From positions 43,024-107,023 of the forward strand of contig JAIUOC010000003.1 of assembly GCA_020161265.1 (NCBI GenBank): a stretch of 64,000 nucleotides of DNA. The letters run 5' to 3'. The notes under the pieces are model-generated. The model was not told where the DNA came from. It did not search any database and saw only the letters and a program-made list of their open reading frames with translations. Positions 4,703 to 59,830 of this stretch are shown one piece after another. Within the stretch, counting starts at the first letter, position 1. Each line of letters opens with the position of its first letter. This DNA comes from Chloroflexota bacterium. Its GTDB lineage: Bacteria; Chloroflexota; Chloroflexia; Chloroflexales; Herpetosiphonaceae. A program made the position numbers and the translations under genes.

Positions 4703-5377
4703 TCACTTTTGGGTGCTGGCGATTTCGCCTAGGCCAACGGCTGGCCCCAAAAAGGTTGGTTGGGGCTGGCTGATGTGAACCTCAAACAGGGCTTTGCAAC
4801 GGGCCAGCCATTCGCGGGTGGTGTAGCGGATTTGGGTTGCTGGTGGATAATAGGTCGTGCTTTGCTCTGGCTTGAAATTCCAATCGGGGATGCTCAGGCC
4901 AATCGCGGCCACACCCAATTCACGACAAGTATAAATTGCCCGAGGTAGATGGTAATCTTGGGTAACCAGGATTGCTTGATTTACGCCGAAAATGGCTTTG
5001 GCGCGGTAACAAGTTTCGTAAGTGCTAAAACCAGCATAATCACGGGTGATGGCGCTGGCTGGTATGCCGTGGGCGATCGCATAATCACGCATCACGCTTA
5101 CTTCATCGTAGTTGGTTTGGCTATTATCGCCGCTCATGAGCAAATGCTGGACGCGGCCTGCTTGATAGAGCTGAATTGCACCATCAAGCCGCTCACGTAG
5201 GGCGGCACTTGGTTGATTGTAGCGAATACCAGCCCCAAATACGATTGCAACTTGTTGGCTTGGAATGCTCGCCACATCAGCAAAACGATAATTGGCAGTT
5301 GCCCAGCGCACCCAACCATTGACCAGTAACAGACCTAAAATTGCCAGCAATGCCAAGCGTAAACCAAATTTGAGCAA
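4703..5377 (-). CDS. SanA/YdcF-like DUF218 membrane protein
   Basis: N-terminal TM helix then a DUF218-like core (VAIVFGAG...LLMSGDN...ILVTQDYHLPRA). TTG start placed directly after the stop of the upstream kinase gene. The longer track ORF overlaps the kinase. Confidence 0.6.
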   Translation of the reverse strand: MLKFGLRLALLAILGLLLVNGWVRWATANYRFADVASIPSQQVAIVFGAGIRYNQPSAALRERLDGAIQLYQAGRVQHLLMSGDNSQTNYDEVSVMRDYAIAHGIPASAITRDYAGFSTYETCYRAKAIFGVNQAILVTQDYHLPRAIYTCRELGVAAIGLSIPDWNFKPEQSTTYYPPATQIRYTTREWLARCKALFEVHISQPQPTFLGPAVGLGEIASTQK

Positions 5378-5378
5378 T

Positions 5379-15182: not shown

Positions 15183-15305
15183 GGGCTAGTTAGGGGCCAG
15201 GATTCAGGGGCTAGGGGTCAGGAAGTTGGCTTATTCATAAGCTCGTCTAAAACGGGGCGATTGAAACCCAAGCCTAATCCCTAACCCCTGAATCCTAACC
15301 CCTCG
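15183..15305. repeat. inverted word repeat (ggattcaggggctaggggtcagg ... cctaacccctgaatcctaacccc), probable bidirectional terminator
   Basis: Sits between convergent genes. Perfect inverted arms. Confidence 0.7.
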
Positions 15306-27424: not shown

Positions 27425-27480
27425 GTTTTAGGATTCAGGGGCTAGGGTTCAGGGGTCAGATTTGTAGGTACTACGAGTAT
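27425..27480. repeat. intergenic word repeat (ggattcaggggctagggttcaggggtcag)
   Basis: Same word family as at 15183 and 1560. Confidence 0.65.
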
Positions 27481-37420: not shown

Positions 37421-37534
37421 CGTGCTCATCAGTAGGTTATAAGCAATTTATCAGGTTGGCCATGCTACTATTACGCAGTCAGTACTGAGCAATTGCTTAC
37501 GAACGATTTAGTGCATCGACAAAAGGAGAATGCC

Positions 37535-39295
37535 ATGCGACGACGATGGGTTCGTCTTGGCCTGCTCATGCTTATTGCCATGGGCGTAGTGCTACCTGGA
37601 ACCAAGGCCGAGGCTACACCGCCGCCGCCCTTAGCCCAGTATTTCCCCGAAACCGGGCAATCAGCGGTCAACTATTTCTGGCAATTTTGGAAGAATACGC
37701 CGAATGCCATGCGCGTGTTGGGCTATCCCATTTCCTTGCCATTTATCCAAGAAAGCTTTACCGAGCCTGGTAAATTCTATTTGGTGCAATATTTCGAACG
37801 CGCCATCTTAGAAGAACACCCTGAAAACTTCAATCACCCAACCAATGGCAACAAATACTTTGTGCTTGGGCGGTTGCTGGGCAAAGAATTGGCCAAGGGT
37901 CGCGAAAATGAGCCAGCCTTCAAGCCAGTGGCTAACCCCAATAATGGTACGGTTTGGTTTCCTGAAACTCAACATACCCTGACCAACACGCCTGGCCCAT
38001 TTTTGACCTTCTGGCGCAATTATGGTGGTCTCTCGGTGTTTGGCTATCCTTTGTCAGAGCCATTCCAAGAGCTGAACCCTGATACTGGTAAAGTCTATTG
38101 GGTGCAATATTTCGAGCGTAATCGTTTCGAATATCATCCCGAAGAAAAACCTGAATTCCAAGTGTTGCTTGGTTTGTTGGGTAAACAATACTATAACGAA
38201 CATAAGCATGAGCCAAAATTGGCCGTCAAGGAATGGTTTTTCCGCTATCACACCCGCGCCGAAGCCATCCCAGCCGATTTTGTCTATGGCTACAATGTTC
38301 AAGCCTTCTACCAAGAACGTGATCGTTTGTATCAATTGGTCAACAATGCCGCCTTTGGTTGGATTCGCCAACAAGCACCTTGGGAAGATCTCCAAGCTGC
38401 TGACGGCACAATCTACTGGGGTGAGTTAGATAAAGTTATCAACGACGCGCATGCCAAGGGCATTAAAGTCTTGTTGAGTGTGGTTCGTTCGCCGGAATGG
38501 GCTAGCGAAAATGGCACGCACGGCTTGCCATCACGCCGCAACTTCCCCAAATTTGGCGATTTTATGCAGCGCATGGCGCAACGCTATAAAGGCAAAGTCC
38601 AAGCTTACGAAATTTGGAACGAGCAAAATTATGCAATTGAAAACGGTGGCGTGGTAGCTCCAGCAGCCTATTATGTGGATATGCTGGAATATGCCTACAA
38701 AGGCGTAAAAGCTGCTGACCCTGAAGCAATTGTGGTTTCTGGCTCACCAACCCCAACTGCCACCAATCGCACTGATATTGCAGTTGATGAGTTGATTTAC
38801 TTTGCCCAAATGTTTGCAATTCCAAAATTCTGGAATAACGTTGACGTAATTGGTGCGCACTTCGGCGGCACTTACAATCCACCAGATACCAAGTGGCCCG
38901 ATAACCCAGGCCCAGGCCCAGGTTGGCGCGACAACTCGGAATTCTACTGGCGGCGGATTGAAGATGTACGCCAAGTGTTGGTCAATAGTGGCAACGGCGA
39001 CCGCCAAATTTGGGTAACCGAAATTGGCTGGGCCACTGCCAACACCAGCCCAGGCTTTGAGTACGGTAACTCGAATACGCTCGAAGAACAGGGAGCCTAT
39101 CTCGAACGAGCAATGTATATGGCTCGCTACGATTACGCTCCATGGGTTGGCGCAATGTTCGTGTGGAACTTAAACTTCGCGGTGACCTCACCCGATGCGC
39201 TGCACGAAACTGCTTCATTTGGGGTATTGAACCCTGATTGGAGTCCACGCCCAGCCTATACCCGCTTGCAACAGTTTGCAGCAACCCATAAATAA
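37535..39295 (+). CDS. secreted clan GH-A glycoside hydrolase (GH5/GH39-like) with two N-terminal LGFP-like repeats
   Basis: Signal peptide MRRRWVRLGLLMLIAMG. Two about 130-aa repeats containing LGYPIS/FGYPLS...YFER. Catalytic-type motifs YEIWNEQN (acid/base) and WVTEIGW (nucleophile). AAGGAG RBS. Confidence 0.7.
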   Translation: MRRRWVRLGLLMLIAMGVVLPGTKAEATPPPPLAQYFPETGQSAVNYFWQFWKNTPNAMRVLGYPISLPFIQESFTEPGKFYLVQYFERAILEEHPENFNHPTNGNKYFVLGRLLGKELAKGRENEPAFKPVANPNNGTVWFPETQHTLTNTPGPFLTFWRNYGGLSVFGYPLSEPFQELNPDTGKVYWVQYFERNRFEYHPEEKPEFQVLLGLLGKQYYNEHKHEPKLAVKEWFFRYHTRAEAIPADFVYGYNVQAFYQERDRLYQLVNNAAFGWIRQQAPWEDLQAADGTIYWGELDKVINDAHAKGIKVLLSVVRSPEWASENGTHGLPSRRNFPKFGDFMQRMAQRYKGKVQAYEIWNEQNYAIENGGVVAPAAYYVDMLEYAYKGVKAADPEAIVVSGSPTPTATNRTDIAVDELIYFAQMFAIPKFWNNVDVIGAHFGGTYNPPDTKWPDNPGPGPGWRDNSEFYWRRIEDVRQVLVNSGNGDRQIWVTEIGWATANTSPGFEYGNSNTLEEQGAYLERAMYMARYDYAPWVGAMFVWNLNFAVTSPDALHETASFGVLNPDWSPRPAYTRLQQFAATHK

Positions 39296-39383
39296 TTAAC
39301 CGAGGTCGGTTGCAACAACACGAAGATCACGCTCTGAAGCCAGTGTTGTGATCTTCGTGTTGTTGTCTGACGAGGAGTTTGAT

Positions 39384-40610
39384 ATGCCTAAATCACGCTG
39401 GTTAAGTGCCGCCATGGTCTGCTTGCTAGCAGTTAATCTTTTGGCGGCGTGTGGTGGCGATAGTGCGCCCACTACCCAACCAACCAATCCTGACGCAGCG
39501 ACGGCTACCCCCGAAACTGCTGCCCCAACCACTGATAGCAATCCACCAGTAACGACGGGCAACCCTTTACAATTGCCCTATTTGCAATATGGGGCAGCGG
39601 CGCAACTGTACTATACTGATCGTAATCGCGCCTTGACCTTGATGAACAACGCTGGGTTCGATTGGGTGCGCCAACAGATTCAATGGAAAGATATTGAAGG
39701 CCCAAAAGGCAATTTTGGCTGGGGCGAGCTTGATGCAATTGTGGCTGATGCCAACGCCAAAAATATCAAGGTATTGTTGAGCATTGTGCGTTCGCCATCG
39801 TGGGCACGCGCCGATGGCACCAACGGCATGCCCGATAACATCAAAGATTTTGGCGATTTCGTCGAAGCCTTGGTGGTGCGCTACAAAGGCAAGGTCCAAG
39901 CCTACGAAATTTGGAACGAGCAAAATCTTGATCATGAAAATGGCGGCTCGCGTGAGTCGATCGACGCTACCAAATATGTTGATCTGTTAGTTGAAGCCTA
40001 CAATCGGATCAAACCAATCGATCCTGAGGCCTTTGTGATTTCAGGCGCATTGACTTCAACTGGCGATTCACCAGCGGCGATCGATGATCTGACCTACTTT
40101 GAACAAATGTTTAGCTACAAAGATGGCATTTTCAAAGATCACATCGATGGTGTGGGTTTCCATCCTTCGCCATCGTACAATCCGCCAGCGACCTTATGGC
40201 CCGACCAGCCCGGCCCAGGCCCAGGTTGGCTCGAAAGCCCAACCCACTACTTCCGCCATATCGAAAACCTCAAAATCTTGATGGATAAATATGGCATGCA
40301 AGATTATCAAGTGTGGGTGACCGAGTTTGGCTGGGCGACCCAAAACACCAGCCCAGGCTATGAGTATGGCAACGAAATTAGCTTTGAACAACAAGGCCAA
40401 TATGTGCTCGATGCGTTGCAAATAACCCGCCGCGATTACCCTTGGGTGGCCACCATGTTTGTGTGGAACCTCAATTTTGCGGTAACCTCGCCTGATCCGC
40501 TTGATCAAACTGCCTCATTTGGCATTCTCAACCCCGATTGGAGTCCCCGGCCAGTCTTTGAAAAAATTCAAGGCTTTATTAACGCCGTTAAGACCGAAGA
40601 AGGTCGCTAA
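39384..40610 (+). CDS. lipoprotein clan GH-A glycoside hydrolase, paralogue of the upstream gene
   Basis: Lipobox LAAC-GG, Pro/Thr linker, the same YEIWNEQN and WVTEFGW motifs. GAGGAG RBS. Confidence 0.7.
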   Translation: MPKSRWLSAAMVCLLAVNLLAACGGDSAPTTQPTNPDAATATPETAAPTTDSNPPVTTGNPLQLPYLQYGAAAQLYYTDRNRALTLMNNAGFDWVRQQIQWKDIEGPKGNFGWGELDAIVADANAKNIKVLLSIVRSPSWARADGTNGMPDNIKDFGDFVEALVVRYKGKVQAYEIWNEQNLDHENGGSRESIDATKYVDLLVEAYNRIKPIDPEAFVISGALTSTGDSPAAIDDLTYFEQMFSYKDGIFKDHIDGVGFHPSPSYNPPATLWPDQPGPGPGWLESPTHYFRHIENLKILMDKYGMQDYQVWVTEFGWATQNTSPGYEYGNEISFEQQGQYVLDALQITRRDYPWVATMFVWNLNFAVTSPDPLDQTASFGILNPDWSPRPVFEKIQGFINAVKTEEGR

Positions 40611-40680
40611 ATCAATGATTCGGCATAGAGCAGCAGCTTTATGCCGAACTGCACTCCTCATGCCACAGCCGTCAAGACTC

Positions 40681-40689
40681 TGGTATACT
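40681..40689 (+). promoter_or_regulatory. extended -10 promoter element TGGTATACT ahead of the NuoB-like operon
   Basis: TGnTATAcT about 20 nt upstream of ATG 40710. Preceded by a 9-bp hairpin (ttcggcata...tatgccgaa at 40618-40648) that would terminate the hydrolase gene. Confidence 0.4.
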
Positions 40690-40709
40690 AGCACGCGGTT
40701 TCATACACA

Positions 40710-41096
40710 ATGGAGGTCAGCGTGATTGCGGTTTATCACCTAAATGCTGGCTCAACTGGCATCGAAGTTCGGATTTTGGCTGAGGCTATTCGTAGCGCCC
40801 GCAACCTGACATGGGCCGCAACTCCGGCTCATGCTGATATTTTTGTGCTGACTGGGCCAATTCCGCTGCTGTTACGCCCAGCTTTGAGCAATGTTTGGCG
40901 CGATTTTATTGCTGACCGTGCGCCATTAATTGCCTTGGGTCGCGCCAGCATCGATGGGCATCCATTTGGGCGCGGTGGCTTGGCCGAGCTACCAGAAATT
41001 CAAGTAGCCGCCAAAATCGATGGCGATCCGCCAACGGTTGCGGCAATTCAGGCCGGCATTGTCCAAGCCCTCAATGCCCGTACCGCCAAACACTAA
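40710..41096 (+). CDS. NuoB / hydrogenase-small-subunit-like protein (Oxidored_q6 fold) lacking Fe-S cysteine ligands
   Basis: HADIFVLTGPIP...LIALGRASIDGHPFG aligns with NuoB ADVMIVAGT...VISMGSCANSGG, with all Cys replaced. Alternative GTG start at 40722 with GGAGG RBS. Confidence 0.55.
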   Translation: MEVSVIAVYHLNAGSTGIEVRILAEAIRSARNLTWAATPAHADIFVLTGPIPLLLRPALSNVWRDFIADRAPLIALGRASIDGHPFGRGGLAELPEIQVAAKIDGDPPTVAAIQAGIVQALNARTAKH

Positions 41097-41105
41097 AGGT
41101 CGTTT

Positions 41106-41951
41106 ATGAATACATTGCTTCAACAATTGATTGCTGCGTTGCTCTATCCGGGTATGCTCACCACAATGTTGTTAACCCTCGCCGTGATTGGCATTACCAA
41201 GTTGCATGCGCCTGGGGGTGGCTTAAGCCGTGGTTTTTTAGCAGCCTTGCAGGGCAAAACTTCGCTCAATCTAGCGCTAGCAGCACTTTTGGCGCTCATT
41301 GCCCCAGCATTTTTGCCATGGGCTGGCTCGCCGCTGGTAACACCCCGCTTGGGCCAATTATGGTTGGCTTGGGCCTTGCTCGAAACCTCGTTTATGCTAG
41401 CGCTCATGCCTGGTTTACAAAGTTTGGCCGCTGCGAGCGTGCGAGCCGCCATGCGCGAGGCCCAACTCAGTAGCGCAGGTCGAATTGTGCTCTGGCTAGC
41501 ACTGGGAGTAGCACTTTGGACAGGCGATAATTGGCAGTGGAACATTGTGCCAGCCCGGGTTTTGGCATTAATCGCAGCGGCAATGGCCTTGCCTGTGGCG
41601 CTTGGTTGGGGTCCATTTGCCCACGATTGGAGCCTTACTCCAGGCGGCCCCGAAGCCGAACTTAACCGTGCTAGTGCTGAGCTAGCCCAATGGGGTCGCG
41701 CAATTCGGGCAACAGTTTTGTTAACCTTGATTCCACTCTTGGGTTTTCCAATCACGGCAGGCTTGCATTGGTCGCTGCATGTGGCCTTGACCATCGCGAC
41801 GACCTTGGCCTTGGCGGGAGTTGGCCGTTATATTAATGGTTCAACGGTGCGCCAACCCTTGAATGAGAGCTTGCGTTGGTGTTACACCCGCGCCTTGCCT
41901 TTAGCCTTGCTGAGCGGAATTGTCTTGGTTGCGATGCAGCGCTGGTTGTAG
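41106..41951 (+). CDS. polytopic membrane protein, weakly NuoH/HycD-like
   Basis: About 8 TM helices. The first loop APGGGLSRGFLAALQ resembles the NuoH GPNxxGPxGLLQ motif. Confidence 0.45.
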   Translation: MNTLLQQLIAALLYPGMLTTMLLTLAVIGITKLHAPGGGLSRGFLAALQGKTSLNLALAALLALIAPAFLPWAGSPLVTPRLGQLWLAWALLETSFMLALMPGLQSLAAASVRAAMREAQLSSAGRIVLWLALGVALWTGDNWQWNIVPARVLALIAAAMALPVALGWGPFAHDWSLTPGGPEAELNRASAELAQWGRAIRATVLLTLIPLLGFPITAGLHWSLHVALTIATTLALAGVGRYINGSTVRQPLNESLRWCYTRALPLALLSGIVLVAMQRWL

Positions 41952-41961
41952 GAGAGAAGCG

Positions 41962-42933
41962 ATGACTGCCTTATTGCTTGAGAAAATCGTCAAACGTTTT
42001 GATACGACAACCATTTTGCGCCAACTCAATTTGCTGGTGCAAGAAGGTCAGGTTTATGGGTTGCTGGGAGCCAATGGCGCGGGCAAATCAACCTTAATTC
42101 ACTTGATTATGGGGTTTTTATATCCCGATAGTGGTCGAATTGAGGTTTTTGGTAAAACGCCCACCGCCATGCACGGCCAAATTGGCTACTTGCCCGAACG
42201 CCTACGCTACCACACCCACTGTAGCGCCCGCGAATACCTGACCTATATGGGCAATTTTGGTGGCATGCGCGGAGCCGGCCTCACCAGCCGCATCAACGAT
42301 TTGCTCGAATTGGTTGGCCTAACCGAAGCTGCCGATAAACGCATGCGCAATTACTCCAAGGGCATGACTCAGCGCGTTGGAATCGCCCAAGCCTTGCTGA
42401 GCGACCCGCAACTGTTGCTGATCGATGAGCCATCATCAGGCCTCGATCCTCAGGGCCAACTTGAAATGCGCGATCTCCTGCTGGATTTACGCAGCCAAGG
42501 CCATACCATTTTGATCTGCTCACATCAGCTTGATGAGATTGAGGCGGTTTGTAATCGGGTGGGCATTTTGGTGCATGGTGCAATTGCCGCCGAAACCGAT
42601 TTAGCTCAACTTACTGGCACAAATGGCGTGGTGATCACGCTTAAAGAAACTCCAACCGATGCGCTGGATTTTGCCCTGCGTTCGATCGACCCAAGCATTG
42701 TACGTGATGATCGCTTTATCACTGTGCCCGAAAATAGCCCAAGCTTGCAAGGGCGCTTATTGCAATTATTGCTTGACGAAGGTTATACCGTGGCTTCGCT
42801 CCAACCAAGCCTTGGCAATCTGCGCGATCTCTATTTGCACGTTGTATCGGGCAAAGAACCACCAGCTGAAATGCAGCCCCAAGCACCGCTGGCCATTCTA
42901 GATAGTTTGTTAGCTGGCGAGGAGCAGCAATAA
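41962..42933 (+). CDS. ABC transporter ATP-binding protein
   Basis: Walker A GANGAGKST, signature YSKGMTQR, Walker B LLLIDEP, H-loop. Extra C-terminal domain. Start at MTALLLEK with GGAGAG RBS. Confidence 0.85.
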   Translation: MTALLLEKIVKRFDTTTILRQLNLLVQEGQVYGLLGANGAGKSTLIHLIMGFLYPDSGRIEVFGKTPTAMHGQIGYLPERLRYHTHCSAREYLTYMGNFGGMRGAGLTSRINDLLELVGLTEAADKRMRNYSKGMTQRVGIAQALLSDPQLLLIDEPSSGLDPQGQLEMRDLLLDLRSQGHTILICSHQLDEIEAVCNRVGILVHGAIAAETDLAQLTGTNGVVITLKETPTDALDFALRSIDPSIVRDDRFITVPENSPSLQGRLLQLLLDEGYTVASLQPSLGNLRDLYLHVVSGKEPPAEMQPQAPLAILDSLLAGEEQQ

Positions 42934-43712
42934 TGGCAAAACTTCGACAAATTTGGGCTTGGACACGCTTCATCTGGAGCGAATACCAACGCACTGGGCG
43001 TTTTTTGGTTGAGCTAGGGGCATTAATTATTTTTGCCTATGTCTTTCTGCGCAAACCCAATGTTGATGCTCATCTTACAGCTACCCAGTTCTTTGGCATG
43101 ACCGCAATTTTTGTGCTCTGTCAGACAATTTTCACCACCACGATGATGGCAGGCCTTGGTAATCGGCCGCAAGGCTATGTGGTTTTGGCGCGCTCATTGG
43201 GCCGCAAAGGCTATTTAGTTGGCCTCTTTTTAGTCGCCTTTTTAATTAGCTTGGTCAATTTAATCCTTTGTACCATCATCGTCACCATCATCAACAAGCC
43301 TGTATTGTGGGATGCAGTGATTTGGGGTGCGGGAGCCTTGCCGCTGATTTTAGATATTGCTTTGATAACCGCCTTGGTACTTCTACTTTCAAGTTTGGTG
43401 CTTTCACAAGGCTGGCGCTTGAGCATTTTGGCGGTCATTGCCTTGGCTTCGTTGAGCACCAGCGATATTTTCACCAACACCTTTGATCCGAATGGGAGCT
43501 TGGGCAAAATTTTGGCAGCAATTCGCACGATTGTTGGCATTCCACTAACGCCATTGTTTGCAGGCTTTGAGCTAGCAGTCACGCGCCAAGCCTATGAGAG
43601 CAATTTGAATCAAGCCTTGGCAATTTTGGGTGGTCAGGCTGCGCTATTAATCGCGGTCAGTGCGTTTGGTTTTTTTGCTTTTGAACGGCGCGATATTATT
43701 CTAGGAGCCTAA
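42933..43712 (+). CDS. ABC-2 type transporter permease
   Basis: 6 TM helices. Start overlaps the ATPase stop (ATAATGG). Confidence 0.65.
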   Translation: MAKLRQIWAWTRFIWSEYQRTGRFLVELGALIIFAYVFLRKPNVDAHLTATQFFGMTAIFVLCQTIFTTTMMAGLGNRPQGYVVLARSLGRKGYLVGLFLVAFLISLVNLILCTIIVTIINKPVLWDAVIWGAGALPLILDIALITALVLLLSSLVLSQGWRLSILAVIALASLSTSDIFTNTFDPNGSLGKILAAIRTIVGIPLTPLFAGFELAVTRQAYESNLNQALAILGGQAALLIAVSAFGFFAFERRDIILGA

Positions 43713-43713
43713 G

Positions 43714-44919
43714 GTGCAAGCTGATGTGTTGGTCATTGGCGCAGGCCTTGCTGGCTTGTGGAGCGCAATCATCCATGCGCAAGCAGGTCGCAAGGTTACT
43801 CTATTGGCCAAAGGCCAAGGAACATTGCCCTGGAGTAGTGGTTGCCTTGATCTCGTGCCGCAACACCCAACCAACTCAGATCATCCCTACCCCATGCTCC
43901 AAGCCGTGCTTGAACCAGCTACCCAAGCTTGGCTTAAATTCACTCAAGCGCAGGATTATCGCTTTGTTGCCAATTTAAAGCAGCATTATTGGCTGCCAAC
44001 CGCAATTGGTACATGGCGGCCAACCAACGCTGTACCATTAACCATGCTCAACGCTGAACGCTCGATTATTAGCAATTATCGGGTGTTGGTGCTGGGCTTC
44101 CGCGAATTACGCGATTTCTTTCCGCCCTTGTTGGCTGCACGCCTGCAACAACACGGCATTGCTGCCCGTGGCAGTTACTTAACCATGCCAACCAGCCAGC
44201 GCTCCCGTGATTTCAATAGCGTTAATTTGGCCCGTTTATGCGAACAAGTCAGTTTTCGCCAAGCTCTGATCAAGCATATCGATCAGATTCGTGGTGATGC
44301 CCAATTGCTGCTGTTTCCCGCCATGCTTGGCATCAGCCACAGCACTAGCATCATCAACGAGTTGCAAACCGCCTTAGGATGTTTAGTAGCTGAAGTGCCA
44401 ACCCTGCCGACCAATGTAGCCGGATTACGTTTGCAACGCATGTTGCTAGACCAATTTGAGCAATTGAACGGGCGAATACAACTGAATGCCGAGGTTATTC
44501 GCGGCGAATTTGTTGATCAACGCTTGGTGGCGGTGTATAGTGCGGCGGCGGCTCGCGAACAGCGCCACACTGCTGGGCACTATATTTTGGCAACTGGCGG
44601 GATTGGCGGCGGTGGTTTACGTGCCGATTATCCCAATGGTTTACGCGAAACAGCGCTGAATTTGCCAGTTCAGCAGCCAACCGAGCGTGATCAATGGTTC
44701 GCGGCCAATGTACATGCCCAACATCAACTCTTCAAAGCGGGGATTGCAGTCAATCAACATCTTCAGCCAATTGATGCCCAACAGCAGCCAATCGCCGAAA
44801 ATCTGCAAGTAGTTGGGGCCGCCTTAGCTGGATGTGACCCAATTCGTGAACGCTGGGTTGAGGGTTTAGCCCTTGCCAGTGCCAGCCATGCCTTTGAGAG
44901 TCGAGGGTTCAGGGGCTAG
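43714..44919 (+). CDS. GlpB-like FAD-binding protein (anaerobic glycerol-3-phosphate dehydrogenase subunit B family)
   Basis: N-terminus DVLVIGAGLAGLWSA...LAKGQGTLPWSSGCLDLV and internal PTLPTNVAGLRLQ align with GlpB. GTG start with AGGAG RBS. No glpA/glpC nearby. Confidence 0.65.
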   Translation: MQADVLVIGAGLAGLWSAIIHAQAGRKVTLLAKGQGTLPWSSGCLDLVPQHPTNSDHPYPMLQAVLEPATQAWLKFTQAQDYRFVANLKQHYWLPTAIGTWRPTNAVPLTMLNAERSIISNYRVLVLGFRELRDFFPPLLAARLQQHGIAARGSYLTMPTSQRSRDFNSVNLARLCEQVSFRQALIKHIDQIRGDAQLLLFPAMLGISHSTSIINELQTALGCLVAEVPTLPTNVAGLRLQRMLLDQFEQLNGRIQLNAEVIRGEFVDQRLVAVYSAAAAREQRHTAGHYILATGGIGGGGLRADYPNGLRETALNLPVQQPTERDQWFAANVHAQHQLFKAGIAVNQHLQPIDAQQQPIAENLQVVGAALAGCDPIRERWVEGLALASASHAFESRGFRG

Positions 44920-45097
44920 AGGTCAGGGATCAGTTTGGATTACGAAGATAGGTATTGGCTGAAGGCTATTGGCTTTTGCTATTCCAATCAATCTCCGATA
45001 GCCCATAGCCTATAGTCATACACTGCTCTGCGTCGCTGGGTTAACCCTAGCCCCTGAACCCTGACCCCTATGTTCTATGCTCTATGTTCTATGTTTT
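44903..45097. repeat. word repeat with inverted arms (ggttcaggggctagaggtcagggatcag ... ccctagcccctgaaccctgacccc; catagcc words; atgttctatgctctatg)
   Basis: Begins inside the last codons of the GlpB-like gene. Long inverted repeat between convergent genes. Confidence 0.7.
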
Positions 45098-45863: not shown

Positions 45864-45932
45864 TTCACTGTCGCCAAATATTAATCTCGCTCAGCACATG
45901 AGTCGTGTATAATGCGGCGAAGGAGATTAGGT

Positions 45933-47621
45933 ATGGCACAACCAACTGAGATTGTTCACCTGCTACGCCCCTTCGGGCGGCGCTTACGCCTTGCCGATAC
46001 ATTGCAATGGCTGAGTCGTACATTTTGGCTTCCGGCACTTGGCTTTGCCTTAATCCAAGGTGCTGGTCGGCTCTTCCCAATTCCTAACTGGACATTATGG
46101 TCGTTAGTGCCCTTCGCGGTTTGGCTGGTTGCCTTACTGGTTGTAGCGCTGCGCCCACAATCGAGCAATCGCATCGCCCAACGTAGCGATCTCGAACTCG
46201 ATTTGCGCGAACGACTCTCGACTGCCCTCGAATTGCACAAACGCGATGATCGCGGGCCACTCGACGATGTTCAATATAATGATGCCCTTGATAAAGCCCG
46301 TACTGCTAATGCTAAGGATATTCGGGTTGCCCCACCACGCAAACATCGTTTATGGTGGGGGTTGGCAGCCTTGTTCTTAATGCTGGGCCTTACCTCGGCT
46401 GTCTTGCCAAACATCCAAAGCAATGTCTTGGCTGAACGCGAGGCGGTCAAAACCGATCTCGAACGGATCGCCGACCGCATCGACCAAACCCGTGAAGAAA
46501 TTGCCAAAGACGAAACGCTTTCGCCTGAAGAACGCGCCGAATTGGATCGCCAATTGGCTGAATTATCCAAAGATTTGCGCGAAAATACTGGCTCACGCGA
46601 AGATGCTTTGGCGAAAATCTCGCGCACCGAACAACAATTGCAAAAGCGCTTGGATTCACGTGCTAGCGCTCGTCAGGCTTCGTTGCAAGAATTGGCCCAA
46701 GCCTTGAAAAACCAGCGTGGAGCCAGCCAAGAGCAACGCCCTGAAGCCAGCGATGCTGCCCAAGAGTTGGAACAAGCAGCGAAAGATGCTGAAAAGATGA
46801 CTCCTGAGCAGCGTGAGCAATTGGCGAATGCGCTTGAACAACAAGCCAACCAAACTGCGGCAACGAATCCTGAATTGGCTCAATCGTTGCGCGATGCTGC
46901 CAGCGCTTTACGCAACGGCAACCTTGCCGATGCTCGCTCAGCGTTGCAACGTGCCAGCAACCAAGCCAGCCAAAGCGCTGAGCAATTGCAAGATCAACAA
47001 GGCGTTGAACAGGCTTTGAGCGAAGTGCAAAATAGCCGTGACCAAGCGGCCCAAGCTGGCCAGCAAGGCCAACAAAATCAACAAGCGGGTCAGCAAGGCC
47101 AGCAAGGCCAGCAGGGTCAGCAAGGCCAGCAGGGTCAGCAAGGCCAGCAGGGTCAACAGGGCCAGCAAGGTCAAGGCCAAGGTCAAGGCCAAGGTCAAGG
47201 CCAGGGTCAGGGCCAAGGCCAAGGTCAAGGCCAAGGTCAGGGCAATGGTCAGGGTCAGGGTGGCGGCAGCCAATCCAACAATCTTGGCTCAGGCAACAGC
47301 AATGGCAGTGGCAATGGCACAGGCCGCAATGATCGCGACTTCCCTGGCACTGGCAACGATAAAGGCCTTGTCTACCAACCATGGAAACCAGGCGCTGCCA
47401 ATGATCCAAGTAGTGTAAGCGGCCAGCCCAATGGCAGCGGTAACGCGCCCAGCCAACCGAGCGGTAGTACTGGCCCAGGCATCGCCAATGGTTCGCAAGT
47501 GCCCTATAATCAAGCTGGCTCGGACTACCAAGAATCGGCAGGGCGGGCGGTGGATAGCGGATACATCCCACCACAATTGAAAAACTTTATCCGCGACTAC
47601 TTTAACCAATTGGAACAGTAA
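45933..47621 (+). CDS. membrane protein with coiled-coil region and Gln/Gly-rich low-complexity tract (DUF4175-like, first gene of MoxR/VWA cluster)
   Basis: Two N-terminal TM helices, a long charged helical region, (QGQQ)n then (GQ)n repeats. Start MAQPTE with AAGGAG RBS and a TGTATAAT -10 upstream. Confidence 0.65.
   Translation: MAQPTEIVHLLRPFGRRLRLADTLQWLSRTFWLPALGFALIQGAGRLFPIPNWTLWSLVPFAVWLVALLVVALRPQSSNRIAQRSDLELDLRERLSTALELHKRDDRGPLDDVQYNDALDKARTANAKDIRVAPPRKHRLWWGLAALFLMLGLTSAVLPNIQSNVLAEREAVKTDLERIADRIDQTREEIAKDETLSPEERAELDRQLAELSKDLRENTGSREDALAKISRTEQQLQKRLDSRASARQASLQELAQALKNQRGASQEQRPEASDAAQELEQAAKDAEKMTPEQREQLANALEQQANQTAATNPELAQSLRDAASALRNGNLADARSALQRASNQASQSAEQLQDQQGVEQALSEVQNSRDQAAQAGQQGQQNQQAGQQGQQGQQGQQGQQGQQGQQGQQGQQGQGQGQGQGQGQGQGQGQGQGQGQGNGQGQGGGSQSNNLGSGNSNGSGNGTGRNDRDFPGTGNDKGLVYQPWKPGAANDPSSVSGQPNGSGNAPSQPSGSTGPGIANGSQVPYNQAGSDYQESAGRAVDSGYIPPQLKNFIRDYFNQLEQ
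47040..47265 (+). repeat. in-frame low-complexity DNA repeats (cagcaaggccagcagggt)n and (caaggccaaggt)n
   Basis: Directly visible tandem 18-nt and 12-nt units encoding QQGQQG and QGQG runs. Confidence 0.85.
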
Positions 47622-47919: not shown

Positions 47920-48909
47920 ATGCAATACACTGAACGCGATGCTGAAATGTTCCGGCGCACTGCTGCTGCAATTGAGGCTGAAATTGGCAAGGTGATTGTC
48001 GGGCAACGCGCCTTGATCCGCCAAACATTAATTACCTTGATCGCTGGTGGCAATGCGTTGCTTGAAGGTGTGCCAGGTTTGGCCAAAACAACCTTGATTC
48101 GCACGCTTTCCGAAGCGGTCGATTGCCAATTTAGCCGAATTCAATTTACCCCCGACTTGATGCCTGCTGATATCATCGGCACAACGATTATCGCCGAAGA
48201 TGAGCAAGGTCAAAAAGAATTCCGCTTCCAACGTGGGCCGATTTTCTCCAACTTGGTGCTCGCCGATGAAATTAACCGCGCTACGCCTAAAACTCAATCG
48301 GCGCTACTCGAAGCTATGCAAGAACATACGGTCAGTGTTGCCCGCACCAGTTACAAGCTCGAAGAGCCATTCTTTGTGCTAGCAACCCAAAACCCGCTTG
48401 AAATGGAAGGCACCTATCCATTGCCCGAAGCGCAACTCGACCGTTTCTTCTTCAAAATCAATGTGCCGTTTCCATCACCCCAAGAGTTGGTAGAAATTGC
48501 GCAACGTACCACGGGGACTGATCAAGCGAAGCCACAAAAGGTGATCAACGGCGCTACCTTGATTCAGTTGCAACAGATGGCGCGTTCGGTGCCAGTGGCG
48601 ACCCACGTCTTGAGCTATGCTGCGCGAATTATCAGCGCAACGCACCCCGATAGCCCACTTGCCCCCGAGCAAGTTAAGCGCTATGTGAGCTATGGCTCCA
48701 GCCCTCGTGGCATGCAAGCGTTGATTTTGGCAGGCAAAATTGCGGCCTTACTCGATGGCCGCACCAACGTCGCCTTCCGCGATTTGCGCGAAATGGCCAC
48801 GCCAACCCTGCGTCACCGAATTATCTTGTCGTTTGAGGGTCAAGCTGAGGGAGTTAACAGCGAAAGTATTGTCAATAGCATTTTGGAATCAATTAAGGAA
48901 GAAGCATGA
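47920..48909 (+). CDS. moxR: MoxR-family AAA+ ATPase
   Basis: Walker A GVPGLAKTT, Walker B LADEINR, typical 330-aa MoxR architecture. Confidence 0.9.
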   Translation: MQYTERDAEMFRRTAAAIEAEIGKVIVGQRALIRQTLITLIAGGNALLEGVPGLAKTTLIRTLSEAVDCQFSRIQFTPDLMPADIIGTTIIAEDEQGQKEFRFQRGPIFSNLVLADEINRATPKTQSALLEAMQEHTVSVARTSYKLEEPFFVLATQNPLEMEGTYPLPEAQLDRFFFKINVPFPSPQELVEIAQRTTGTDQAKPQKVINGATLIQLQQMARSVPVATHVLSYAARIISATHPDSPLAPEQVKRYVSYGSSPRGMQALILAGKIAALLDGRTNVAFRDLREMATPTLRHRIILSFEGQAEGVNSESIVNSILESIKEEA

Positions 48910-49631
48910 CCCGCCGTATTGCCCTAATCATTTTAGCCCTTGCTCTGGCCAGTTGCGGTAGCTACGCATCCGATAGTAGCCGCCAAGTCAGCATTCGTCC
49001 AACGATTGTGCCATCAACCCCTGCTCCGCCAGCAACCCAAGATCCGTTGGGCATTGCCAGCGAATTTATTCCGTTAGCAAAACCAGCTCAAATTCCGGCT
49101 GACGATCAACGCTCAATGGGCGATCCTAACGCGCCAGTCACAATTGTTGAATATAGCGATTTCCAATGCCCCTTCTGCCAACGCCATCATGTGTCGGTTT
49201 TCCCCGAACTGAAGGCCAAATATATTGATACTGGTATGGTGCGCTATGTATTCCGCAACTATATCGCTGTGGAAAGCCATACGTCTGCGCCAGCCGCTGG
49301 AGTTGCCAGCTTCTGCGCCATGGATCAAAACAAGTTTTGGGAAATGTATGACATGTTGTTTGTGCGAGCCAGCGAATGGGGCGTTGATCCCAATCTCGCG
49401 CCAACTGTGATGCTCAAGTATGCCGAAGAATTGGACTTGGATACCGCCGCCTTTGCCAAATGCCAAGCCGACCCAGAAGTTTTGGCCAAGGTCAATGCTG
49501 AAACTGCTGAGGCTGTGGCCGCCCAAGCAACTGGTACGCCAGCCTTCTTTATCGGCAACTACATCATTCCTGGGGCTTACCCACTCCAAGGTTTCGATGC
49601 CGCAATTGCCTTGGCAAACCAAAATCAATAA
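48906..49631 (+). CDS. DsbA-family thiol:disulfide oxidoreductase lipoprotein
   Basis: Lipobox LASC-GS. CPFC active site (YSDFQCPFCQRHH). 4-nt overlap with moxR. Confidence 0.8.
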   Translation: MTRRIALIILALALASCGSYASDSSRQVSIRPTIVPSTPAPPATQDPLGIASEFIPLAKPAQIPADDQRSMGDPNAPVTIVEYSDFQCPFCQRHHVSVFPELKAKYIDTGMVRYVFRNYIAVESHTSAPAAGVASFCAMDQNKFWEMYDMLFVRASEWGVDPNLAPTVMLKYAEELDLDTAAFAKCQADPEVLAKVNAETAEAVAAQATGTPAFFIGNYIIPGAYPLQGFDAAIALANQNQ

Positions 49632-49658
49632 TCGTTGGTTGAGTGTGGAGATGTTGCA

Positions 49659-50543
49659 ATGAGCGAACAAGCAGCGCTATTTGAACCACAATTCTTAAAA
49701 CAATTGGATCGTTTGGCGCTGCTGACGCGCCGCAATATTGCTGGCCAGATGCAAGGTGAACGCCGTTCGCCGCGCCGTGGCTCGTCGGTGGAATATGCCG
49801 ACTTCAAGCCCTACACGCCAGGCGATGATTTTCGCCAGATCGACTGGAATTTATATGCGCGTTTGGAGAAATTCTTTCTCAAGCTGTTTGTAGCCGAAGA
49901 AGAAATTACCCTCCACCTGCTGATCGATACCAGCGCTTCGATGGATTGGGGCGAGCCAAACAAGTTGCGCTATGCCGCTCAGGCAGCGGGCGCGTTAGGC
50001 TACATCGCCTTAGCCAGCCTTGATCGAGCGCAAGTCACCAGTTTTGGCGGTGGCAACGAGCAGCGAATTCCGGCAGGGCGGGGGCGGGCAGGTGTGCCGC
50101 CATTATTCAATCTGCTGAATCGACTCAAGGGCAACGGCGATACCAGCTTGTTGCAAGCTAGCCGCCGCTATATTCAAACGGCGCGGGTAGCTGGGCCATT
50201 GTTGTTATGCAGCGATTTGCTCACGCCCGATTGGGAAGAAGCCTTGCGCACGCTTGGCCGCCGCCCATTTGAAATTACTGTGCTGCATGTGCTCTCGCCT
50301 GATGAGCTGAATCCGCCATTCGAGGGCGATTTGAAATTGCTCGATGTTGAGGGTGGCGAATCGCTCGATGTCAGTGCTGATCTCGATTTATTGCAGCGTT
50401 ATGTTGAACGTTTGCAGGCATGGCGCGAAGAAGTTGAGCATTTTTGTACAACTCGTGGCATCAACTATATTTTTGTTGATACCAGCTTGCCTTTGGAATC
50501 ATTGTTGGTTTCAGTGCTACGCGAACGTCAAATTGTACGCTAG
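49659..50543 (+). CDS. DUF58 family protein (MoxR partner)
   Basis: Conserved YADFKPYTPGDDFRQIDWN motif of DUF58. Confidence 0.85.
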   Translation: MSEQAALFEPQFLKQLDRLALLTRRNIAGQMQGERRSPRRGSSVEYADFKPYTPGDDFRQIDWNLYARLEKFFLKLFVAEEEITLHLLIDTSASMDWGEPNKLRYAAQAAGALGYIALASLDRAQVTSFGGGNEQRIPAGRGRAGVPPLFNLLNRLKGNGDTSLLQASRRYIQTARVAGPLLLCSDLLTPDWEEALRTLGRRPFEITVLHVLSPDELNPPFEGDLKLLDVEGGESLDVSADLDLLQRYVERLQAWREEVEHFCTTRGINYIFVDTSLPLESLLVSVLRERQIVR

Positions 50544-50557
50544 AGCTAGAGGGGAAT

Positions 50558-50923
50558 ATGGAGAAACGTAAATTTAAACATTTAAGGACGTTTGTCTATT
50601 CATTAACCGCTGTTTTATGTATTACAGGTCTCTATTTAGCAATCCAACAGAGCCGCTCGTGGATCGGCGTTATTTTAATTATCGCTAGTTTACTTTCTTG
50701 TTATCGTGGTATTCGTTATATTGACTATTTAGAACGTGATGAAGTCATTGATGATCCACGAATAACTCGCCATCGTCAAGAAGCATCCAAAGTTATTTAT
50801 GTATCAATTGTTGATGATGCAGGCAATCTGCTACCCGATGCTGAAGCCAAAGCCAAAATTCGCCAAGCCGAAGCCCAAGCTGGCCCACGCGATACGATTA
50901 TTTCGGTAAAACATAAGGTTTGA
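50558..50923 (+). CDS. hypothetical two-TM membrane protein, AT-rich gene
   Basis: Track ORF. Markedly lower G+C than its neighbours. Confidence 0.5.
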   Translation: MEKRKFKHLRTFVYSLTAVLCITGLYLAIQQSRSWIGVILIIASLLSCYRGIRYIDYLERDEVIDDPRITRHRQEASKVIYVSIVDDAGNLLPDAEAKAKIRQAEAQAGPRDTIISVKHKV

Positions 50924-50924
50924 T

Positions 50925-51485
50925 ATGCAACCAATTGAATTAGAATATAAACTTGATTTTACGGATTATCAGGCAGCCAATTTAGCGATGTTTAAGCACA
51001 GCCCACGCTATCAAGAATCGCTGAATTTAAATCGCTATTACGAACTATTACTGTATGTTTTAGGTGTTGGATTAATCGCCTTCTTTATTGCTGCCCTGAT
51101 TCAAGTTGGGCATTTAATTATTTGGTTAATTGTGCTTGGACTAGTGCTATTAAGTGCTTGGATTGTTTATAACCATCGGGATATGCGTGAATTTACCTTG
51201 GATTATTTACAAAGAAATTATCGGCATGAACAAGCGAGTTTTGAATTACCAACAGCCTTTATCGGTGATTCAAGCCATATTGAAGAAACAAATGCTTGTT
51301 TCAGTAGCAGCTATAAATGGAATTTTATTCAAACTATTTTGGATGAAGCCGAACATATTCTCTTGGTTAGTCATAATAATCGGGTGGTTGTTATACCCAA
51401 GCGAGCATTTAAATCGCCAGCCGATCAGCAGATAGCGTTGCAACAATTTGCCCAATATCATGCTGACGCACAGCTAGCAGAGTGA
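50925..51485 (+). CDS. hypothetical membrane protein (YcxB-like architecture), AT-rich gene
   Basis: Two adjacent TM helices after about 45 aa. Start 2 nt after the previous stop. Low G+C. Confidence 0.5.
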   Translation: MQPIELEYKLDFTDYQAANLAMFKHSPRYQESLNLNRYYELLLYVLGVGLIAFFIAALIQVGHLIIWLIVLGLVLLSAWIVYNHRDMREFTLDYLQRNYRHEQASFELPTAFIGDSSHIEETNACFSSSYKWNFIQTILDEAEHILLVSHNNRVVVIPKRAFKSPADQQIALQQFAQYHADAQLAE

Positions 51486-51494
51486 GTAGATTGT

Positions 51495-53399
51495 ATGGGA
51501 TTTATTGCACCATTAATGTTTATCGCAGGCGGCACGGTTCTGGCAGGAATTGTGGCCATGTACATCTTGCGCCTCCGCCGCGAGGAACGCACGGTTTCGT
51601 CAACCTTTTTATGGAATCAATTGGTTCGCGATGTTGAGGCCAACGCGCCGTGGCAACGCCTCCGCCATAATTGGTTGCTTTGGCTGCAATTGCTCATTGC
51701 CTTGCTCTTGGCGTTTGCCCTGGCCCGACCGTTCAGCCCAACCGTTGGGGTTAGTGGGCAAAATCTCATTGTGATTATCGATCGCTCGGCTTCGATGGGC
51801 GCTACCGATGTTGATACCAATCGGCTGGCAGCTGCCAAGGCTGAAGCAATTCGCTTGGTTGATCAGTTGCCTGATGGCGCACGCGCTACGATTATGGCGA
51901 TCGGCGGCGAGCTTGATGTGCCTGCTGCTGCCACCACTGACCGCCGCGAAATTCGCGATGCAATCGAAGGCATAGAATTGCGCTTAGGTGGTGGCTCGGA
52001 TATGTCGCAAGCCCTGAGTTTGGCTGGGGCATTGGCGGCGCGTGAAGAAGAATCGGAAGTGGCAATTTTGACCGATGGCCAAGTAACCGTGCCAATGAGT
52101 GCCACTTTACCCGCCAAAATTCGCTATTTCCCAGTTGGCACGAGCAACAACAATCAGGCGATCGCGGCAATTGCCTTGAACGAACTAGCGCCAGGCACGT
52201 TGACCTTCTTTGCCCGCGTTACCAACGAAGGCCAAGAGCGGGTTACGCGGCGTTTGTTGGTAACCCTCGATGGCACCTTGTTCAATGCCTATGATCTCGA
52301 AATTTTGCCCGGCCAAGATCAAACCGTCAATATCGATGTGCCAGCAACCGCCACCACGGTTGAGGCGCGGCTTGATGGCAGTGATAGCCTGCCCAGTGAC
52401 GATGTGGCTTGGGCAATTCGCCCATCAAGCGATGCAATTCCGGTGCGTTTTGTCACGCCAGGTAATCGTTTTCTGGCTACGGCCTTGGGCTTGATGCCAC
52501 GGGTACAAGTTTCGGCCTATCTGACTGAAACTGCCACCTTTACTGATACGGCCTTGCTGACGGTGCTCGATGCCAGTTTGCCAGAGCCGTTACCCGCTGG
52601 CAATTTGCTGTTTATCGCACCCTATCGCTCGACCGAATATTTCTCGGTGACTGGAAGTTTGGATCGACCAGTGCCCCGCCCCGCCCCAACCGATGATCCG
52701 TTGTTGCGCAATGTTGAGCTGGGCGAAGTCAATATTTTGAAATCGGCACGGATTGAAAATGCACCTTGGGCACATACGGTGATCGATAGTGCGGCTGGCC
52801 CGTTGCTAATTGCAGGCGAAGTTGATGGGCGACGGATTGCGGTGCTCGGCTTCGACACCCATGATTCCGATTTACCATTGAATATTTCATTTCCATTGTT
52901 GATTGCCAATTTGGTGGGCTACTTAGCACCTGGGACTGGTGGCGATTCGGCGATTTTGCCGCCTGATCAAGAATTAGCCTTTGCGGTAACCAATGATATT
53001 AGCGGCGTGCGCTTAATTCAGCCCAATGGTGAAACCCACGAAGCCACGCCAAGCAATGGCTTGATCAGTTTCGATGGGAGTTTGATGAACCAAGCTGGCA
53101 TTTACAGCGTCGAATTGCTACGCGATGGCGTGGTCAGTAAAACCCAGCGCTATGTAGTCAATGCATATCGCGAAAGCGAAGCCAAAATTACCCCAGTTCA
53201 AGTGCTCGATGTCGCCCAAATTGGCGGCGGTCAAGTTGGCTCAAGCGAAACCACCCAAGCCAAAGCAGGCCGTGAAGAGTGGTGGCGTTGGTTGGCTTTG
53301 GCAGCATTAATTTTTGTGTTGATCGAATGGGTCTTTGCCCAACGTAGCGCCTTCACACGGCTCAAACTGTGGTGGAATGCGCGGCGCAGCGCGGCGTAG
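51495..53399 (+). CDS. BatA-like protein: N-terminal double-TM aerotolerance domain plus von Willebrand factor A domain, C-terminal TM
   Basis: N-terminus MGFIAPLMFIAGG...LRLRREER...FLW. VWA MIDAS motif IDRSASM. Confidence 0.8.
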   Translation: MGFIAPLMFIAGGTVLAGIVAMYILRLRREERTVSSTFLWNQLVRDVEANAPWQRLRHNWLLWLQLLIALLLAFALARPFSPTVGVSGQNLIVIIDRSASMGATDVDTNRLAAAKAEAIRLVDQLPDGARATIMAIGGELDVPAAATTDRREIRDAIEGIELRLGGGSDMSQALSLAGALAAREEESEVAILTDGQVTVPMSATLPAKIRYFPVGTSNNNQAIAAIALNELAPGTLTFFARVTNEGQERVTRRLLVTLDGTLFNAYDLEILPGQDQTVNIDVPATATTVEARLDGSDSLPSDDVAWAIRPSSDAIPVRFVTPGNRFLATALGLMPRVQVSAYLTETATFTDTALLTVLDASLPEPLPAGNLLFIAPYRSTEYFSVTGSLDRPVPRPAPTDDPLLRNVELGEVNILKSARIENAPWAHTVIDSAAGPLLIAGEVDGRRIAVLGFDTHDSDLPLNISFPLLIANLVGYLAPGTGGDSAILPPDQELAFAVTNDISGVRLIQPNGETHEATPSNGLISFDGSLMNQAGIYSVELLRDGVVSKTQRYVVNAYRESEAKITPVQVLDVAQIGGGQVGSSETTQAKAGREEWWRWLALAALIFVLIEWVFAQRSAFTRLKLWWNARRSAA

Positions 53400-59469: not shown

Positions 59470-59830
59470 ATACCAACCACGATTCGGGGAACACTGAGCT
59501 GAAAGTCTTAGCGTTCTCCGAATATTCGTTTTATCGATTGTCACTGTTCATCCCAAATCCCTTTACTCGTGCACTTCGCGTTCTTCGTGGTTTCAGTTTG
59601 GTTATAAGGTGTCAGGGGCTAGGGGCCAGTTACTTTTTCTTTCTCAGAACCTCACCCAAACTCACCTATATTTCCAATAGCCAATAGCCAATAGCCAATA
59701 GCCAATAGCCTCAATTACTCTGCGCCTCTGGGTTAAAATGTCCTAACCCCTGATCCCTGATCCCTAGCCCTTCGTAACCTTTGCTATTTACCAATGACAA
59801 TGGTATCTTGTGAGGCGATATTGGCAACTT
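59470..59830. repeat. intergenic word repeats including (ccaatagc)x5 tandem and inverted cagggatcagg words
   Basis: ccaatagccaatagccaatagccaatagccaatagcc at about 59685-59721. ggggctaggggccag upstream. cctaacccctgatccctgatccctagccc downstream. Confidence 0.75.

Follow-up and report, generated by a model that had tools for sequence, protein, structure and literature searches.

A cysteine-free homologue of hydrogenase small subunits and a divergent NuoH-type membrane protein accompany a type V ABC transporter in Herpetosiphonaceae

What keeps a NuoB-type protein in a genome once all of its iron-sulfur (Fe-S) ligands are gone? This question is raised by an operon of five open reading frames (ORFs), named here g1 to g5, that lie on one strand at 40710-44919 of a 64,000-nucleotide stretch of DNA (assembly GCA_020161265.1, contig JAIUOC010000003.1; the whole stretch is called the window) from a Herpetosiphon aurantiacus-like genome. 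A preliminary description made from the DNA sequence had read the five genes as a cysteine-less NuoB-like protein, a degenerate NuoH-like membrane protein, the ATPase and the permease of an ATP-binding cassette (ABC) exporter, and an orphan GlpB-like flavoprotein, and had taken them together for an uncharacterized membrane redox or transport machine. Our analysis indicates that the parts belong to known superfamilies and that their arrangement is new: a redox-dead NuoB/NuoH pair without NuoD stands beside an ABC-2 transporter. The g1 protein is 100% identical to that of strain DSM 785 (CP000875); the window as DNA is only 95.5% identical to that genome, with a synonymous divergence (dS) of 0.16-0.26. 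It therefore represents a different strain, and DSM 785 itself was ruled out as its source.

Searched as a single sequence, g1 reached 20.7 bits (E = 3.7e-4) against the Pfam model PF01058 (Oxidored_q6), whose gathering cut-off is 27. Its homologues form a family of proteins of about 117-133 amino acids, and a family profile built from 23 sequences matched MbhJ (6cfw_J) best in the PDB, over its full length and with E = 1.5e-15, followed by NdhK, Nqo6/NuoB and HycG at 1e-11 to 1e-8. The Roseiflexus orthologue clears the Pfam model by itself (44.1 bits). Through its family profile, g1 thus belongs to the NuoB/[NiFe]-hydrogenase small-subunit family. In Roseiflexaceae, Chloroflexaceae and Kouleothrix, the g1 proteins carry the motifs GSCGGCD, GRCAIDG and DGCPP, which align on GSCNGCD, GACPTGG and PGCPP of MbhJ and supply the four [4Fe-4S] ligands. 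The corresponding positions of the window protein are T16, E19, A79 and D106, and the whole protein contains no cysteine; across Herpetosiphonaceae, the four cysteine ligands have been replaced, in order, by T/S, E, A/T and D. The four cysteine ligands of the proximal (N2) [4Fe-4S] cluster are therefore absent from g1, as had been claimed from the sequence, and because the outgroup proteins MbhJ, NuoB and HycG have these cysteines, the cysteine-free state of Herpetosiphonaceae is a loss. Without Fe-S ligands in g1, g1 and g2 cannot carry electrons, so that the pair is neither a hydrogenase nor a quinone reductase.

Residues 81-90 of g1, IDGHPFGRGG (40950-40979), are invariant or nearly so in both the cysteine-containing and the cysteine-free clades. 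This stretch does not occur in MbhJ or NuoB, which have GG-x-F/Y there, and is a signature of the family, adjacent to the third of the former cluster ligands. A contact surface at this motif may account for the retention of g1.

The membrane protein g2 was harder to place. By itself it had no match among Pfam, NCBIfam or PDB sequences and failed the Pfam NADHdh model, and its family profile likewise found nothing among the PDB sequences. An exhaustive search of 1.84e9 representatives with this profile returned 92 proteins only. The most distant full-length matches, P0135 (E = 1.3e-10) and P0142 (E = 3e-6), score 161 and 176 bits, respectively, on the Pfam model PF00146 (NADHdh) and so bridge the two families; in the bridge alignments, RAAxREAQ of the g2 family falls on SAMREA of NuoH-type proteins, and GWGPFA..SLTPGG on the ND1-loop motif NPFSxxxAEQEIVAG. 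The AlphaFold2 model of g2 (pLDDT 83, pTM 0.82) predicts eight tilted transmembrane (TM) helices with the ND1 fold. When this model was compared with the PDB by Foldseek, HycD came first (7z0s_D; TM-score 0.70/0.65, E = 1e-5), and among the matches listed (50) all were HycD, NuoH/ND1 or an NDH-1 homologue thereof. A comparison by hhalign with 15 HycD-like ORFs, found by jackhmmer in outgroup loci, gave P = 0.0017 over 213 columns, versus P of 0.13 or worse for five control membrane families. The sequence bridge, the predicted fold and the profile-profile comparison all point to membership of g2 in the NuoH/HycD/ND1 family. The NuoH likeness first suspected from a loop motif thus holds, and the unrelatedness of g1 and g2 to these families, which would have undone the preliminary description, was not borne out.

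Compared with HycD of Escherichia coli formate hydrogenlyase (FHL; HycG/HycD, 7Z0S) and with complex I, g2 still begins its ND1 loop with PF-x-D/E, and its R117-E118 falls on the A-R-E motif that HycD-type proteins have. It differs in that the ND1-loop motif PFD-x-x-EAE-x-E and the set of acidic residues of the E-channel are not conserved. Its ND1 loop is degenerate (GWGPFAHDWSLTPGGPEAEL), with PF-A-x-D/E and few acidic residues left, and the TM1-2 loop motif is lost. E93, R113, R117, Q120 and R126 are invariant in the family, and E118 is present in at least 90% of the sequences. In an alignment of low confidence, E118 corresponds to HycD E130, and the invariant R126 stands opposite HycD E138, a charge reversal at a residue that is functionally essential in HycD (PMC9474812).

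The assignment of the next two genes to an ABC transporter stood. The g3 protein matches Pfam ABC_tran at 2.7e-29. DrrA and GldA are its best subfamily models, yet it scores under the equivalog cut-offs of both, and also under that of NodI, so it lies outside those named subfamilies. Its best PDB match is NosF (7o0y_B, 2.6e-54), followed by ABCA nucleotide-binding domains (ABCA4/ABCA3), and it is an ATPase of the ABC-2/ABCA-like kind. The extra C-terminal domain described earlier is spanned by the full-length PDB matches 4yer_A and Rv1218c; since the extension is common to TM-type and Rv1218c-type ABC-2 ATPases, it is ordinary for the class. For g4, neither the family profile against PDB sequences nor Pfam on 21 members, ABC-2 models included, gave a match, and the protein was assigned by structure alone: it is predicted to be a six-TM permease with the ABC-2 fold, and PmtCD and Wzm-Wzt are among its structural matches. 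Together, g3 and g4 make up a type V (ABC-2) transporter nearest to NosFY and PmtCD. They differ from NosDFY and PmtCD in having no NosD/NosL-type or basket-domain partner, in that the partner genes are NuoB/NuoH-like instead, and in that g4 is recognized by no Pfam ABC-2 model.

Where this combination comes from became apparent from gene neighbourhoods. A scan of the genome collection with the g1 family gave 80 loci, whose ORFs were compared by tblastn and clustering. The order g1-g2-g3-g4 is kept in about 35 loci and makes up a conserved cassette confined to Chloroflexia. In Roseiflexaceae, Chloroflexaceae and Kouleothrix these genes form the 3' part, four of eight genes, of a longer cluster. 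In about 25 loci, four more genes precede g1-g4 in a strictly contiguous arrangement; they encode a large subunit of the group 4 [NiFe]-hydrogenase type (about 360 amino acids; Complex1_49kDa/NiFe, 1.7e-41), two Mrp/NuoL-type antiporter-like proteins (about 580 and 490 amino acids; Proton_antipo_M, 1.9e-20 and 9.9e-8) and a membrane protein of about 240 amino acids. The large subunit degenerates stepwise across the clades in an Ehr-like gradient. All four NiFe cysteines are kept in Roseiflexaceae (RICGxCSxAH ... DxCxACAER), three in Chloroflexaceae, where one is lost, and none in locus L036, from the Chloroflexaceae metagenome-assembled genome SM2_1_1 (large subunit at 4882-5997, RISSVAS ... 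ADAADAEG); in Herpetosiphonaceae the gene has been deleted from the locus. Beside this large subunit without NiFe cysteines, L036 still encodes a small subunit with GSCGGC and DGCPP, and represents a fully Ehr-like intermediate within the same cluster.

This eight-gene hydrogenase/Ehr-like cluster of the sister families indicates, with MbhJ and HycD as the best PDB matches of g1 and g2, that the ancestry lies in a membrane-bound hydrogenase (MBH) and not in complex I. We regard the origin of the g1-g4 cassette from a hydrogenase cluster as well supported. Of the earlier claim that the genes are a remnant of the complex-I Q-module, the cofactor-less remnant stands and the complex-I origin does not. 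The MBH of Pyrococcus furiosus (PDB 6CFW; small subunit MbhJ, anchor MbhM) resembles the ancestral cluster further in that both have a large subunit and Mrp-type antiporter-like subunits; the window differs from it in having no large, antiporter-like or NuoC/NuoI-type subunits and no cysteine in g1, and in having an ABC transporter attached instead.

Several Roseiflexaceae and Kouleothrix loci (L002, L012, L013, L016, L018, L040 and L041) have a gene for an ArsR/SmtB-type helix-turn-helix regulator of about 100 amino acids 3' of the permease gene, and in Roseiflexus this is followed by a gene for an adenylate-cyclase/AAA/TPR protein of about 1430 amino acids. Such neighbours hint at a possible control of the eight-gene cluster by metals or signals.

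Ehr complexes are relatives of group 4 hydrogenases that have lost the NiFe ligands and kept the membrane modules (PMC6349859), a description that the eight-gene cluster of Chloroflexaceae fits. Could such a complex still be made in Herpetosiphon, with the large and antiporter-like subunits encoded elsewhere and g1/g2 serving as its structural, non-redox subunits? The existence of Ehr complexes without NiFe ligands speaks for this, as does the fact that Chloroflexaceae keep the whole cluster despite the partial loss of these ligands. However, Ehr complexes retain large and antiporter-like subunits, and the Herpetosiphonaceae loci have neither: a tblastn search for the four upstream genes (C7/C6/C3/C4) found none in the 64-kb window (best E = 0.12) and none within 10 kb on either side of any Herpetosiphonaceae locus. 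Moreover, the absence of the upstream module coincides exactly with that of all four small-subunit cysteines in 9/9 Herpetosiphonaceae loci, while every locus with a detected upstream-module gene keeps at least three of the four cysteines and nearly all of these loci keep four. Given this coincidence and the strict contiguity of the cluster elsewhere, we consider a complex with scattered subunits quite improbable.

Loss of function would be another account of a protein stripped of its ligands. Pairwise Nei-Gojobori comparisons between the window and five further Herpetosiphon genomes (dS 0.5-1.1) gave ratios of nonsynonymous to synonymous divergence (dN/dS) of 0.016-0.037 for g1, 0.03-0.04 for g2, 0.04-0.07 for g3, 0.04-0.09 for g4 and about 0.10 for g5. 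The genes g1-g4 are under strong purifying selection. One could suppose that g1 and g2 are a decaying relic, non-functional and heading for pseudogenization, as all cofactor ligands are gone and g2 has become too divergent for Pfam. Their dN/dS of 0.02-0.04 at dS up to about 1 effectively refutes this, and we rejected both genes as pseudogene candidates on that basis. The ORFs are, furthermore, intact in the nine Herpetosiphonaceae loci, at 63-98% protein identity (63-73% for g1 across family-level divergence), and the IDGHPFGRGG motif has hardly varied; decay is barely credible. As the NuoB/NuoH pair has remained strongly conserved at a locus without NuoD and antiporter subunits and without an Fe-S cluster of its own, it must have a function independent of electron transfer.

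The fifth gene does not share this history. The preliminary description's reading of g5 as a GlpB homologue is correct, since the protein passes the curated cut-offs of NF003726 (646.4 bits; cut-off 354) and TIGR03378 (211.6 bits; cut-off 174.15). It also matches FAD_binding_2 at 2.7e-42 and has an N-terminal FAD motif; among PDB sequences it had no match, and a metagenome scan with the GlpB alignment, made for GlpB contexts, returned matches to the N-terminal FAD motif only. Nor was a GlpA/GlpC partner found: among the other ORFs of at least 100 amino acids in the window, none carries an FAD-Rossmann motif at its N terminus or a CxxCxxCxxxCP/4Fe-4S motif, and GlpA and GlpC are therefore not encoded locally. 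The neighbours scanned with Pfam are NAD-salvage enzymes, GH5-like proteins, an FKBP and a MoxR/DUF58/BatA set. In its score and its FAD motif g5 is thus like GlpB of GlpABC, and it differs in having neither glpA nor glpC in the window and in starting 1 nt behind an ABC permease gene. In our neighbourhood survey, g5 stood behind g4 only in six loci of the genus Herpetosiphon (L004-L008 and L011), and the other three Herpetosiphonaceae loci have a GNAT-domain or a VTT/DedA gene in its place. Hence g5 is an addition of the genus Herpetosiphon, outside the core, and the five-gene unit proposed at first did not survive the survey: only g1-g4 travel together.

One may nonetheless imagine that all five genes form one membrane redox or transport machine, in which the flavoprotein feeds electrons into the NuoB/NuoH-like module or docks on it. 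Consistent with this, g5 is separated from g4 by a single nucleotide, follows it in 6/6 loci of the genus, is under purifying selection (dN/dS about 0.10) and has no usual GlpB partners in the window. Its absence from the cassette at every locus outside the genus, the three other Herpetosiphonaceae loci included, argues against such a machine, as does the evolutionary rate of g5, about three times that of g1 and g2. Since g1 lacks Fe-S ligands and the locus has no NuoD-type large subunit that could provide a quinone or active site, g1-g2 are an unlikely basis for a redox machine. We judge the five-gene machine very improbable.

The g1-g2 pair and the ABC exporter have been maintained as a unit, and we therefore propose that a cofactor-less, hydrogenase-derived NuoB/NuoH pair has been retained with the exporter as its non-redox membrane partner, a reading we hold with somewhat more belief than doubt. 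In the ancestor of Chloroflexia, the genes of a group 4 [NiFe]-hydrogenase/Ehr-type complex would already have been linked with those of a type V ABC transporter. In Herpetosiphonaceae, which are aerobic non-phototrophs, the catalytic and antiporter-like genes were then dropped from the locus, and the small subunit lost its cluster. We envisage g1 docked on g2 from the cytoplasmic side, in the way that MbhJ is placed on MbhM, and g2 as keeping a polar intramembrane cavity (E93, R113, R117, E118, Q120 and R126) together with the start of the ND1 loop. The g1/g2 heterodimer would be the partner of an ATP-driven g3(2)g4(2) exporter, in which it may act as an accessory, substrate-handling or coupling subunit, and g5 would have been appended later, in the genus Herpetosiphon.

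It is conceivable, instead, that g1-g2 and g3-g4 have unrelated functions and share an operon for historical reasons, so that the exporter needs no NuoB/NuoH-like partner. Type V ABC transporters such as PmtCD and Wzm-Wzt normally act as ATPase(2)-permease(2) alone, and two Chloroflexaceae loci, L031 and L035, carry g1-g2 homologues without adjacent ABC genes, so that the link between the pair and the transporter is strong and not obligatory. On the other side, the order g1-g2-g3-g4 has been held across order-level divergence and persisted in Herpetosiphonaceae after the upstream half was deleted, with gaps of 10 nt or less. We therefore rate mere neighbourhood as quite unlikely. The partner reading nevertheless has points against it besides the two loci without ABC genes: the physical association of g1/g2 with g3/g4 is one that we infer, genes for the large and antiporter subunits, which we presume to be missing from the Herpetosiphon genome, might lie at another site in it, and we know of no precedent for a NuoB/NuoH pair that serves an ABC transporter. 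A bolder form of the proposal makes the NuoB/NuoH-type pair a true subunit of the ABC machine, a coupling module of complex I and hydrogenases recruited to an ATP-driven type V transporter; we regard this as unlikely.

The part of the literature that could be searched, which is incomplete, contained no account of a g1-g4 cassette or of a linkage of hydrogenases or Ehr complexes with ABC transporters, and for Ehr or group 4 hydrogenases in Chloroflexia, or a hydrogenase of Herpetosiphon, it yielded general papers only. Hence the statement that no characterized system matches the cassette agrees with what we found.

The coordinates of the operon and its associated elements are collected in Table 1. 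As stated in the preliminary description, the genes are tightly packed. The g1/g2 junction is a 9-nt gap, the g3/g4 junction a 1-nt overlap and the g4/g5 junction a 1-nt gap; the g2/g3 junction is a 10-nt gap, provided that g3 starts at the ATG at 41962, which is preceded by a GGAGAG Shine-Dalgarno sequence and gives the 323 amino acids of the orthologues. For g1, GTG 40722 is probably the initiator rather than ATG 40710, which would shorten the protein to 124 amino acids, because GGAGG lies 5 nt upstream of it and the homologues begin with MIAV and have 123-124 amino acids. Upstream, a hairpin lies 3' of the GH5-like gene. In seven Herpetosiphon genomes its stem is invariant and its loop varies, and it probably terminates transcription of the GH5-like gene, which would set the 5' limit of the operon. 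The extended -10 promoter noted earlier is present as well. A consensus scan by itself was not above chance (7 sites found versus 5.3 expected); across the same seven genomes the -10 block AGACTCTGGTATACTA is invariant, while the -35 region and the coding third positions vary (dS 0.5-1.1). The tight junctions and the conserved -10 element are compatible with one transcript, on which g5 is probably carried together with g1-g4.

Table 1. Operon genes and associated sequence elements, in window coordinates.
Feature	Coordinates	Strand	Description
Hairpin	40619..40647	+	TTCGGCATA...TATGCCGAA; 3' of upstream GH5-like gene
Promoter-like site	40660..40689	+	weak -35 ATGCCA, 18-nt spacer, TG-extended -10 TGGTATACT (40681-40689)
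g1	40710-41096	+	MbhJ/NuoB-type hydrogenase small-subunit homologue, cysteine-free, 128 aa
g2	41106-41951	+	divergent membrane protein, probable NuoH/HycD/ND1 family, 281 aa, about 8 TM helices
g3	41962-42933 (longer ORF from 41920)	+	ABC-2/type V ABC ATPase, 323 aa, C-terminal extension
g4	42933-43712	+	type V (ABC-2) permease by predicted structure, 259 aa; without sequence-family assignment
g5	43714-44919	+	GlpB-family FAD flavoprotein, 401 aa
Long hairpin element	44904..45062	.	two perfect 16-nt arms (44904-44919, 45047-45062) with 127 nt between them
Dispersed repeat copies	1576-1591, 15199-15296, 27430-27459, 44904-45062, 59607-59758		termini AGG(A/G)TTCAGGGGCTAG(GGGTCAGGG)

The large inverted repeat in which the operon was said to end is present, with its first arm overlapping the g5 stop codon, and its RNA is predicted to fold at -75 kcal/mol (z = -3.6). 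It is not specific to the operon, however. The arm sequence has 9 matches in the window versus 0.28 expected, mostly as inverted intergenic pairs 80-160 nt apart with non-conserved interiors, and the repeat is therefore a dispersed element resembling repetitive extragenic palindromes or miniature inverted-repeat transposable elements (REP/MITE-like) and not a feature of the operon. We accordingly rejected it as an operon-specific terminator. The copies in the window seem to belong to one REP/MITE-like family of elements in Herpetosiphon, and the one behind g5 may act as a terminator or stabilizer. The homology to DSM 785 (L004; 95.5% from 36000) ends inside this copy, about 53 nt past the g5 stop codon (window 44972; L004 14266), a synteny break that is a strain-specific rearrangement. 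Past the break, the window has an FKBP gene on the minus strand and then genes for a Q/G-rich protein and for MoxR; in the six Herpetosiphon-genus loci, among them DSM 785, genes for a 682-aa protein and a response regulator come next.

Other neighbours of the operon were noted in passing. Directly upstream, 37493-39295 and 39348-40610 are neighbouring paralogues for secreted GH5-like (Cellulase-family) proteins, whose catalytic C-terminal halves are nearly identical, an arrangement kept in the six Herpetosiphon-genus loci (cluster C12). Downstream, 45912-47621 encodes a 569-aa protein without a Pfam match, which has an N-terminal TM region and a coiled-coil-like middle rich in E, Q and A; its tandem GQQ and GQ repeats (47058-47261; periods of 6, 9, 18 and 27 nt) probably differ in length between strains. 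The region 47920-53399 holds a Bat-type (aerotolerance-like) operon for a MoxR AAA+ ATPase, a DsbA-like thioredoxin, a DUF58 protein and BatA/VWA. MoxR homologues also lie a few kilobases downstream of the cassette in L012, L013 and L039 (Roseiflexaceae/Chloroflexia), which may be coincidence.

Complex I, MBH, FHL and Ehr complexes are all built on a NuoB-NuoD-NuoH junction that couples chemistry to a membrane arm. The Herpetosiphon locus is a natural experiment on this junction: it has been stripped of NuoD, of the antiporter subunits and of the Fe-S cluster, and the NuoB/NuoH pair is still conserved. It also reveals that a hydrogenase-type cluster and the genes of a type V ABC transporter are linked throughout Chloroflexia, and it adds, with the g2 and g4 families, two protein families that have no Pfam models. 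The graded series of large subunits described above lets one ask what the junction does alone, and whether ABC and complex-I-type modules can couple. Should the NuoB/NuoH pair prove to be an ABC subunit, the NuoH-like subunit would have physically connected the ancestral group 4 hydrogenase/Ehr-like antiporter complex with the ABC transporter, an ion-translocating membrane arm would be linked to ATP hydrolysis or to the export of a substrate, and Herpetosiphon would hold the minimal, redox-free core of that link.

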